This document shows, one piece after another, positions 6,399 through 14,470 of a stretch of DNA of 64,000 bases. A program made the translations under genes and the position numbers. Where the stretch lies: the NCBI RefSeq assembly GCF_988243305.1, contig NZ_OZ547136.1. One strand, given 5' to 3'. Within the stretch, counting starts at the first letter, position 1, and each line of letters starts with the position of its first letter. The notes under the pieces are model-generated. The model searched no databases. It worked only from the letters and a program-made list of their open reading frames with translations, and was not told the DNA's origin.

Positions 6399-11950
<5,552 letters not shown>

Positions 11951-11952
11951 CA

Positions 11953-12294
11953 ATGCGAATATTTGTCTACGGCAGTTTACGCCACAAACAAGGCAACAGT
12001 CACTGGATGACCAATGCCCAGTTACTGGGCGATTTCAGTATCGATAACTACCAGTTGTATAGCCTGGGCCACTATCCAGGCGCAGTTCCGGGGAACGGAA
12101 CAGTACACGGTGAAGTTTATCGTATTGACAACGCCACGCTGGCCGAACTTGATGCCTTGCGCACCAGGGGCGGTGAATACGCGCGCCAGTTGATTCAGAC
12201 GCCGTACGGGAGTGCATGGATGTACGTTTATCAACGACCCGTCGATGGATTAAAGCTAATTGAAAGCGGCGACTGGTTAGACAGGGATAAGTAA
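11953..12294 (+). CDS. ytfP: gamma-glutamylcyclotransferase-family protein YtfP
   Basis: 113-aa ORF MRIFVYGSLRHKQGN... (GGCT-like YGSL motif) directly after tamB. Confidence 0.9.
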   Translation: MRIFVYGSLRHKQGNSHWMTNAQLLGDFSIDNYQLYSLGHYPGAVPGNGTVHGEVYRIDNATLAELDALRTRGGEYARQLIQTPYGSAWMYVYQRPVDGLKLIESGDWLDRDK

Positions 12295-12304
12295 TAATAA
12301 AAGC

Positions 12305-12330
12305 ACGCCACCTTCGGGTGGCGTTGTTTT
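12305..12330 (+). terminator. rho-independent terminator after ytfP
   Basis: Stem ACGCCACC / GGTGGCGT with TTCG loop followed by TGTTTT. Confidence 0.7.
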
Positions 12331-12673
12331 ATGCGATGTATCTCGCGATTTTTTTTTGTAACTTTTCCATCTTTTGCTTTTCTCTCCGAGCCGCTTTCCA
12401 TATCTGCAATCGCATAAAAAACTCTGCTGGCGTTCACAAATGTGCAGGGGTAAAACGGGGGCACGCTTTGAACGGTGAGTATGAGTGAGGTCGGCTAACT
12501 TCCAGCAAGTGGCTATGAACAGCAAAATGGTGGTCGGGTTTGCTTGTTCTTACCGTTCAAGCCTTGCAACCGCTGAGAATAATGATGGTGGAATAGAGAG
12601 TTTATTTATCGCGGGCATAAAAAAACCCTTACTAACCGAAGCCCGGCGTTCAGGGTTATTGCGCTAGAAGAAC

Positions 12674-13204
12674 TTATTTATTCTTTGCGCGCTCGAAGGA
12701 AGCAACGATTTCAGCTTTAGCGGCTTCTGCGTTTTCCCAACCTTCAACTTTCACCCACTTGCCTTTTTCGAGGTCTTTGTAGTGCTCGAAGAAGTGAGCG
12801 ATCTGCGCTTTCAGCAGCTCTGGCAGATCGTTAACGTCTTTAATGTGATCGTATTCTTTGCTCAGCTTGGTGTGCGGAACAGCAATCAGTTTCGCATCTT
12901 CACCGGCTTCGTCGGTCATTTTCAGAACGCCAACCGGACGGCAACGGATCACAGAACCCGGCTGCAGCGGGTACGGAGTCGGGACCAGTACGTCAACCGG
13001 GTCACCGTCCAGAGACAGGGTGTGGTTGATGTAACCGTAGTTGCACGGATAGAACATCGCGGTGGACATGAAGCGGTCAACGAACAGTGCGCCGCTCTCT
13101 TTGTCGATTTCGTATTTGATCGGATCTGCGTTAGCCGGGATCTCAATAACAACGTAGATGTCTTCCGGCAGATCTTTACCCGCAGGGACGTTGAGTAAGC
13201 TCAT
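12674..13204 (-). CDS. ppa: inorganic pyrophosphatase
   Basis: 176-aa [38 protein letters not shown]... Confidence 0.97.
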
Positions 13205-13513
13205 GTCTGTTTCCTTTAAAAATATGTGGCAAACAAGTGCCGAGTATTATAGCCAACTCGCGCCGAATGTCTTCGCTTGTTTTCGTCTTCATTTTCCTTT
13301 TTCGCCAATTTTAAGACGGTATACAGAGCAGGAAAATCCATAACCGTAGCCGCATTTTTCATAGTGAGATGAAAGCGATTACAAACTTGTGATTAACGTT
13401 TTATTTACTTCTTTGAAGTGTGATGTAACGCAATCCGTTACATAACGAATTGTCTATAGTTTTTTCGCGAACATCTTTTCACCAATAATAATTACCCCGA
13501 CGAGGACAACCCT

Positions 13514-14470
13514 ATGTGGAAACGCTTACTTGTAGTCTCTGCAGTCTCGGCAGCCATGTCGTCTATGGCGTTGGCCGCTCCATTAACCGTAGGATTTTCG
13601 CAGGTCGGATCGGAATCTGGCTGGCGCGCCGCAGAAACCAATGTGGCGAAAAGTGAGGCCGAAAAACGCGGAATTACGCTGAAAATTGCCGATGGTCAGC
13701 AAAAGCAGGAAAACCAGATTAAAGCGGTACGTTCCTTCGTCGCGCAAGGGGTGGATGCGATCTTTATCGCTCCGGTGGTTGCGACTGGTTGGGAACCGGT
13801 ATTAAAAGAGGCGAAAGATGCCGAAATCCCGGTCTTCTTGCTCGATCGTTCTATTGATGTGAAAGACAAATCTCTCTATATGACCACCGTCACTGCCGAC
13901 AACATTCTCGAAGGCAAGTTGATTGGTGACTGGCTGGTAAAAGAAGTGAATGGCAAACCATGCAACGTGGTGGAGCTGCAGGGCACTGTTGGGGCCAGCG
14001 TCGCCATTGACCGTAAGAAAGGCTTTGCCGAAGCCATTAAGAATGCGCCAAATATCAAAATTATCCGCTCGCAGTCAGGTGACTTCACCCGCAGTAAAGG
14101 CAAAGAAGTCATGGAGAGCTTTATCAAAGCGGAAAACAACGGCAAAAACATCTGCATGGTTTACGCCCATAACGACGACATGGTGATTGGTGCAATTCAG
14201 GCAATTAAAGAAGCGGGCCTGAAACCAGGCAAAGATATTCTGACAGGTTCTATCGACGGCGTACCGGATATCTACAAAGCGATGATTGATGGCGAAGCGA
14301 ACGCCAGTGTTGAACTGACGCCGAATATGGCAGGTCCCGCCTTCGACGCGCTGGAGAAATACAAAAAAGACGGCACCATGCCTGAAAAGCTGACGCTGAC
14401 CAAATCCACCCTTTATCTGCCTGATACCGCAAAAGAAGAGTTAGAGAAGAAGAAAAATATGGGGTATTGA
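13514..14470 (+). CDS. ytfQ: periplasmic sugar-binding protein of galactofuranose ABC transporter
   Basis: 318-aa ORF with signal peptide, periplasmic-binding-protein fold; first gene of the ytfQRT-yjfF cluster. Confidence 0.92.
   Translation: MWKRLLVVSAVSAAMSSMALAAPLTVGFSQVGSESGWRAAETNVAKSEAEKRGITLKIADGQQKQENQIKAVRSFVAQGVDAIFIAPVVATGWEPVLKEAKDAEIPVFLLDRSIDVKDKSLYMTTVTADNILEGKLIGDWLVKEVNGKPCNVVELQGTVGASVAIDRKKGFAEAIKNAPNIKIIRSQSGDFTRSKGKEVMESFIKAENNGKNICMVYAHNDDMVIGAIQAIKEAGLKPGKDILTGSIDGVPDIYKAMIDGEANASVELTPNMAGPAFDALEKYKKDGTMPEKLTLTKSTLYLPDTAKEELEKKKNMGY

Follow-up and report, generated by a model that had tools for sequence, protein, structure and literature searches.

The chpS-chpB (chpSB) toxin-antitoxin (TA) pair of Escherichia coli K-12 lies between ytfP and ppa. 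In the stretch of E. coli chromosome analyzed here (64 kb, referred to as the window), the two genes are much closer together, and a preliminary description of the sequence proposed that the locus lacks the pair. This raises the question of whether the module is indeed missing, and if so, whether the short interval was never occupied, was emptied recently or is the product of an old loss.

Content of the ytfP-ppa interval

The interval is 379 bp long (12295-12673), between the end of ytfP at 12294 and the end of ppa, which is on the minus strand, at 12674. Gene names follow a RefSeq-annotated genome whose ytfP-ppa sequence is 100% identical. The features of the region are as follows.

8171-11950, plus strand: tamB
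11953-12294, plus strand: ytfP, gamma-glutamylcyclotransferase family protein, ORF of 113 aa; left border of the interval
12297-12357, plus strand: ytfP terminator, from a terminator scan and folding; its hairpin is kept across Enterobacteriaceae
12358-12457, plus strand: homologue of the K-12 region upstream of the chpS promoter, ending with GGGGTAAAACG; aligns to ~1905-2004 of L001
12458-12466, no strand assigned: junction of deletion 1, from pairwise and multiple alignments
12467-12591, plus strand: chpB relic, homologous to chpB nt 19-145 (codons 7-49)
12586-12596, plus strand: junction of deletion 2, with TGGTGG microhomology, then the vestigial last codon and stop
~12618-12657, minus strand: likely ppa terminator, an AACCCT...AAGGGT stem followed by a T7 run, positioned just after ppa
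12674-13204, minus strand: ppa, inorganic diphosphatase, ORF of 176 aa; right border of the interval
13514-14470, plus strand: ytfQ

The preliminary description had given the separation as about 380 bp with a terminator and no ORF for a MazF/ChpB-like product, and the interval agrees with it on these points. The ytfP terminator consists of an 8-bp G+C-rich hairpin (12305-12324) nested in a longer stem (12297-12332); a small hairpin (12332-12347) and a T9 run come after it. The hairpin with its extension folds at -24.5 kcal/mol (z = -4.4 vs shuffles), and in our alignment the hairpin is invariant across Enterobacteriaceae. The minus-strand hairpin at ~12618-12657 is likely the ppa terminator, judging from its position and T-run; it is absent from the results of the consensus terminator scan, and the 69-nt stretch that holds it is no more stable than shuffles (z = +0.46).

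No ORF in the interval has a Pfam match to MazF/PemK or MazE, and the 60-aa ORF at 12485-12667 has no Pfam match of any kind. When the K-12 proteins were used as tblastn queries, no intact ChpS or ChpB was found in the window, which supports the proposal that the locus lacks chpSB. The sole ChpB match in the 64 kb is the relic, which has an in-frame stop inside, and no ChpS match is better than E = 2.5. An Rfam scan of 11800-13600 at E <= 1 returned only a chance-level match to the S15 leader inside ppa (16.8 bits vs a gathering score of 39.5), and a promoter scan found no sigma-70-like sites in 12200-12750. Upstream of the relic, the blocks 12369-12403 and 12410-12457 are nearly invariant in alignments of Escherichia alleles with and without chpSB, and nothing in the Rfam and promoter scans matches them. 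The stretch from the ytfP terminator to the first of these blocks varies considerably among Escherichia alleles.

The chpB relic and the missing segments

The short interval is not found in K-12, where the preliminary description had correctly placed chpS-chpB between ytfP and ppa. The interval of a K-12 derivative measures 886 bp and contains chpS (252 bp) and chpB (351 bp); MG1655 matches it at 100%. The published ytfP-chpS and chpB-ppa distances are 211 bp and 79 bp, respectively (table in PMC5120126).

Locally aligned to K-12, the window shows three collinear blocks. ytfP has a single mismatch in 342 nt, and a divergent haplotype begins exactly at its stop codon, beyond which the following 163 bp diverge from K-12 by 13.5%. 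The ytfP-proximal block (208 bp) is 86.5% identical to K-12, and the last 137 columns, which form the ppa-proximal block, are ~95% identical. The relic, bordered by these two homologous blocks, occupies the orthologous position in the orientation of chpB and aligns to K-12 chpB with 72.4% identity over 127 columns (blastn, E = 1.8e-14). Similarity to chpB by chance is excluded. A global MAFFT alignment of the window and K-12 set the relic against the start of chpS and was dropped in favor of local and segment-wise alignments.

The relic is identical to K-12 at 91 of 125 positions and has two single-base gaps, which shift the reading frame, and two in-frame stops. Its differences from K-12 fall evenly on the three codon positions (12/9/13), as is typical of a gene that has been dead for a long time. 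Its frameshift-corrected translation has no Pfam match even at E <= 10; as controls, K-12 ChpB matched PemK_toxin (1.1e-25) and K-12 ChpS matched MazE_antitoxin (1e-11). Homology at the orthologous site is thus combined with lost coding capacity and a neutral substitution pattern, the hallmarks of a chpB pseudogene. None of the components of a functional MazEF-family type II TA module (toxin ORF, antitoxin gene, autoregulated promoter) was found in the interval. In place of an intact toxin ORF with a PemK/MazF-like domain (PF02452) there is only the relic. No antitoxin gene (MazE/AbrB-type, PF04014) lies upstream of it or overlaps it, and chpS-homologous DNA is absent from the alignments. The palindromic operator GTTATACTTTGTATAAC, which five genera share upstream of chpS, is lacking in every relic allele aligned. 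Judged from its sequence, the 'empty' site is a dead chpB gene rather than a vacant one. The preliminary description was right that the gap is free of intact chpSB genes, but it missed the 125-nt decayed fragment.

Two segments of K-12-type sequence are gone. At deletion 1, ~295-312 bp are missing, including the operator palindrome TTATACTTTGTATAA, the Shine-Dalgarno sequence, the whole of chpS and chpB codons 1-6. The breakpoint has been blurred by later decay and the source of the 9 nt at 12458-12466 is ambiguous; the alignment suggests a possible GTGAnTT microhomology. At deletion 2, ~195 bp are missing (chpB nt 146-340). The motif TGGTGG is present at both K-12 breakpoints of this deletion and as a single copy in the window (12586-12591). 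It is followed by a vestigial chpB end that reads GAA TAG, as compared with GAA TAA in K-12, where the 3' end of chpB is GGTGGTGGAATAA.

We consider it very probable (about 90%) that the window carries a chpSB-null allele derived from a chpSB-bearing ancestor by two deletions, and that the loss is old. One deletion would have taken out the chpS operator/promoter core, the entire chpS and the first six chpB codons in one stretch. The other would have removed chpB codons ~49-113 between the TGGTGG microhomologies. A promoterless, frameshifted 125-nt chpB fragment would be left over, and has probably been drifting neutrally since. A type II TA module can be lost without poisoning if the antitoxin and the toxin start are removed together, or if the toxin is inactivated first. 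The two deletions could have occurred in either order, since both orders avoid an active toxin left without its antitoxin. The strain is predicted to make neither the ChpB mRNA endoribonuclease, a MazF-family toxin, nor the antitoxin ChpS, and ytfP and ppa would terminate toward each other across dead DNA.

Direction of change and age of the loss

The neighborhood of ytfP was taken from 80 species representatives. Four of the non-coli Escherichia representatives have an intact chpS-chpB ~215 bp downstream of ytfP (91-98% protein identity), and the pair is also found at this site in Lelliottia, Enterobacter asburiae, Kluyvera, Pseudocitrobacter and Enterobacteriaceae RIT691 (63-78% protein identity). 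The residence of chpSB at this site therefore predates these genera, and the module is an old syntenic resident. The short allele is also found outside E. coli. In the type strain of E. albertii (L010) and in a non-coli Escherichia (L008) the interval is 378 bp long and 89-90% identical to the window end to end, and the relics are 87% and 96% identical to that of the window, respectively. Both deletions are common to the four relics compared (window, CFT073, L008 and E. albertii), which are 83-96% identical end to end. In a neighbor-joining tree of the 127-nt segment, all four relics group together at the end of a long private stem, as the sister clade of Escherichia chpB; the intact Escherichia chpB genes are 95-98% identical among themselves in this segment. 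Since the short allele contains a chpB relic, the direction of change is loss and not gain.

L008 (NZ_JAATUR010000006.1, titled 'E. coli SCPM-O-B-8794') and another sequence, L005 (CP089930.1, titled 'E. coli E69'), have a tamB gene only ~91% identical to that of the window, with a four-fold site difference of ~0.29-0.30. Despite their titles, they likely represent cryptic Escherichia species.

It might be argued that the short interval is the ancestral, never-occupied state and that chpSB was inserted in the K-12 lineage as a mobile module. TA modules are often acquired horizontally, the site is a hotspot for cargo in other Enterobacteriaceae (a TonB-dependent receptor, an Hcp-fused effector, a chemoreceptor, esiB), and minimal intervals of ~93-165 bp in many genera have no detectable trace of chpSB. 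Such a history is nonetheless very improbable and is contradicted for this allele by the relic. It does not explain why the short allele holds chpB-derived sequence in the right position and orientation, followed by a vestigial stop, or why chpSB occupies the identical position in several genera with a divergence that tracks phylogenetic distance.

The length of the ytfP-ppa gap ranges from ~93 bp to more than 3.8 kb across Enterobacteriaceae. A cargo of ~3.4 kb is present in nine of the neighborhoods, from Citrobacter, Enterobacter and Lelliottia; in one of them (L011) it encodes a TonB-dependent receptor (Plug and beta-barrel) and a YncE-like beta-propeller protein. Receptor and propeller protein together form the cargo in Citrobacter and Enterobacter. 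In Salmonella enterica subsp. arizonae (L017, 4734-6227) and Citrobacter youngae (L016, 4603-5945), the gap encodes Hcp-domain proteins that differ in their C-terminal extensions, with a small ORF behind each; each combination is likely a type VI secretion Hcp-effector/immunity pair. An apparently truncated version of the Hcp protein is found in C. amalonaticus (L028, 4446-4943). In Silvania and Pluralibacter the gap contains a gene for a methyl-accepting chemotaxis protein. A conserved hydrophobic ORF of 107 aa (MLSFFLQSIKMGYIKAFDCYG...) lies on the opposite strand directly after ytfP in four sequences from Enterobacter and Citrobacter (4389-5711 in L033; also L051, L055 and L034), accompanied in some species by ORFs of 156 aa and 194 aa. 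No Pfam family was found for these three ORFs.

Fragments of the module were also seen at ytfP-ppa in two species with no intact copy. In Enterobacter cloacae DSM 26481 (L033, 6085-6168) a fragment resembles ChpS residues 1-31, and in Citrobacter sedlakii (L027, 4430-4471) another resembles ChpB residues 63-76. These fragments suggest independent losses of chpSB, and that loss recurs.

The age of the null allele is harder to constrain. The relic diverges from that of the window by 12.6% in E. albertii and 4% in L008, and is far less diverged than the four-fold degenerate sites of tamB (34.5% and 30%, respectively), which does not fit simple vertical inheritance. To account for it, one must assume recombination between species or local constraint. 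Most simply, homologous recombination through the conserved flanking genes may have exchanged alleles of the interval, between species too. A molecular clock based on the tamB four-fold sites is at odds with how little the relic and ytfP diverge between species, and the age can be given as an order of magnitude only. Judged from the extra divergence of the relic lineage, inactivation may, very roughly, be about as old as the genus Escherichia. The relic has only 125 nt, so both the tree and this estimate are coarse.

An alternative is that the relic, or the conserved block upstream of it, has persisted because it took on another role, such as a small RNA or a site that regulates ytfP or ppa. 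The low divergence of the relic relative to the tamB four-fold sites and the near invariance of 12369-12403 and 12410-12457 in both allele types across Escherichia would be consistent with this. We find it very improbable, however. The interval has no Rfam match and no promoter-like site, the substitutions in the relic follow no codon or structural pattern, and PGAP annotation is absent at the relic among the matches listed. Moreover, the four-fold sites of ytfP are equally under-diverged (13%), which points to regional introgression and not to constraint on the relic.

Allele frequencies and comparison with known loci

Of 5,426 complete E. coli genomes surveyed, 3,098 (57%) contain full-length chpSB. 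The 171 bp around the relic were found in 2,321 (43%), with at least 99% identity in 1,527; BL21(DE3) matches at 100% and B2 strains at 91-94%. The short-interval allele as in the window accounts for ~2,100 genomes (39%), a figure obtained by subtracting the 3,098 with chpSB from the 5,198 that were covered at least 80% by the ytfP-ppa query. The esiB-type (CFT073-type) interval is found in 188 genomes (3.5%), and other interval types in ~40. The sets of genomes with chpSB (3,100) and with the relic (2,321) sum to 5,421 of the 5,426. The null allele segregates at ~43% in E. coli beside the intact module, probably shuffled by recombination through the flanks.

These counts bear on whether chpSB may reside elsewhere in the chromosome or on a plasmid of this strain, which would then not be ChpB-negative. 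The inspected part of the genome is 64 kb, and three ytfP-chpSB-ppa matches are on plasmid-labelled records. However, the number of genomes in which a ytfP-chpSB-ppa query is covered at least 80% is exactly 3,098, the same as the number with full-length chpSB, which indicates that every full copy is at the ytfP-ppa locus. The plasmid-labelled records also match the ytfP and ppa flanks, and presumably are misassigned chromosomal fragments. The counts allow only about two genomes with both the relic and chpSB, and the one that was seen, HH45, resembles an artefact. The 64-kb window has no copy, and E. coli B, which has the same allele at 100% identity, is reported to lack chpSB (Yoon et al., 2012; PMC3446290). 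A copy of chpSB elsewhere in this genome is therefore very unlikely. A recent strain-specific deletion, a laboratory event or an assembly collapse is extremely unlikely: poor assemblies can collapse short intergenic regions and nothing more specific favors it, while the same sequence is found in 2,321 of 5,426 genomes, including BL21(DE3), and in E. albertii, and the 28% by which the relic differs from intact chpB is too much for a recent event.

HH45 (L004, NZ_CP116411.1, 1207-1718) has a relic-type backbone in which ~90 nt identical to K-12 chpB replace the decayed relic. It also carries, at the position of chpS, a 133-bp G/C-rich insert that is almost free of T and resembles nothing, and PGAP annotates a partial PemK/MazF pseudogene. 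We rejected HH45 as a less-decayed intermediate and judge it to be a consensus or assembly artefact or a mixed sample.

An old loss by two deletions, as we propose for the null allele, could be part of a broader history. The live module and the dead allele may form an ancient trans-species polymorphism that has existed since about the origin of the genus and has been passed on by recombination via ytfP and ppa. Its 57:43 ratio would be held by opposing selection, for instance a benefit in phage defence or stress against the cost of the toxin, and not by drift. We regard this extension as rather doubtful.

Our analysis places the strain among the ~43% of E. coli, including the B/BL21 lineage, without the ChpB mRNA interferase. 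Findings made with chpB in K-12, for instance in strains with multiple TA deletions, therefore cannot be carried over to this strain. More generally, a chromosomal TA pair can be an old syntenic resident that has been lost repeatedly, and the ytfP-ppa locus could be used to ask whether selection maintains chromosomal TA modules. The same dead allele in E. albertii and another non-coli Escherichia could serve as a handy marker of inter-species recombination.

Absence of chpSB from ytfP-ppa is an ordinary, frequent and already published condition. Among 47 genomes, Pastorello et al. (2013, mBio; PMC3735183) distinguished three states of the locus, namely chpBS (53%), esiB (15%) and neither gene (32%), and noted short repeats flanking esiB. 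The window belongs to their 'neither esiB nor chpBS' class. It also resembles the E. coli B genotype (PMC3446290); the 171-bp relic region of BL21(DE3) is 100% identical. The share of this class was 32% of 47 genomes in 2013, compared with ~39% of 5,426 here. In the relevant parts of these two reports the locus is described as lacking both genes and a chpB remnant is not mentioned, unlike here; a limited literature search found no published mention of such a remnant at ytfP-ppa. The added detail from our study is that the null allele is a decayed chpB pseudogene resulting from two old deletions and common to other Escherichia.

Compared with the K-12 chpSB locus, the window has the same ytfP-ppa site with homologous flanks, 125 nt of chpB and the vestigial stop. 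What it lacks is chpS, the operator palindrome, the start of chpB and the distal two thirds of that gene. The paralogous chromosomal MazF-family module mazEF (chpA) adjoins relA, and its toxin and antitoxin belong to the same families as those of chpSB. Unlike chpSB, mazEF is a separate locus beyond the window and is unaffected by the loss.

The esiB allele is that of ExPEC/B2 strains (CFT073, Nissle 1917). CFT073 has the same double-deletion relic downstream of esiB, with ~94% identity to that of the window. It differs from the window in a 1.6-kb cargo between two copies of the ytfP terminator hairpin; the window has one copy of the hairpin and no esiB sequence, and aligns to CFT073 only outside the cargo. 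In CFT073 (L003, 1334-3368) esiB lies between two copies of the 26-bp hairpin found at 12307-12332 of the window. The window matches the left copy with its flank at 100% and the right side at only ~90%, in agreement with the repeats noted in the published account of the locus (PMC3735183). The presence of the relic beside esiB in CFT073 indicates that esiB was inserted into a null-allele background.
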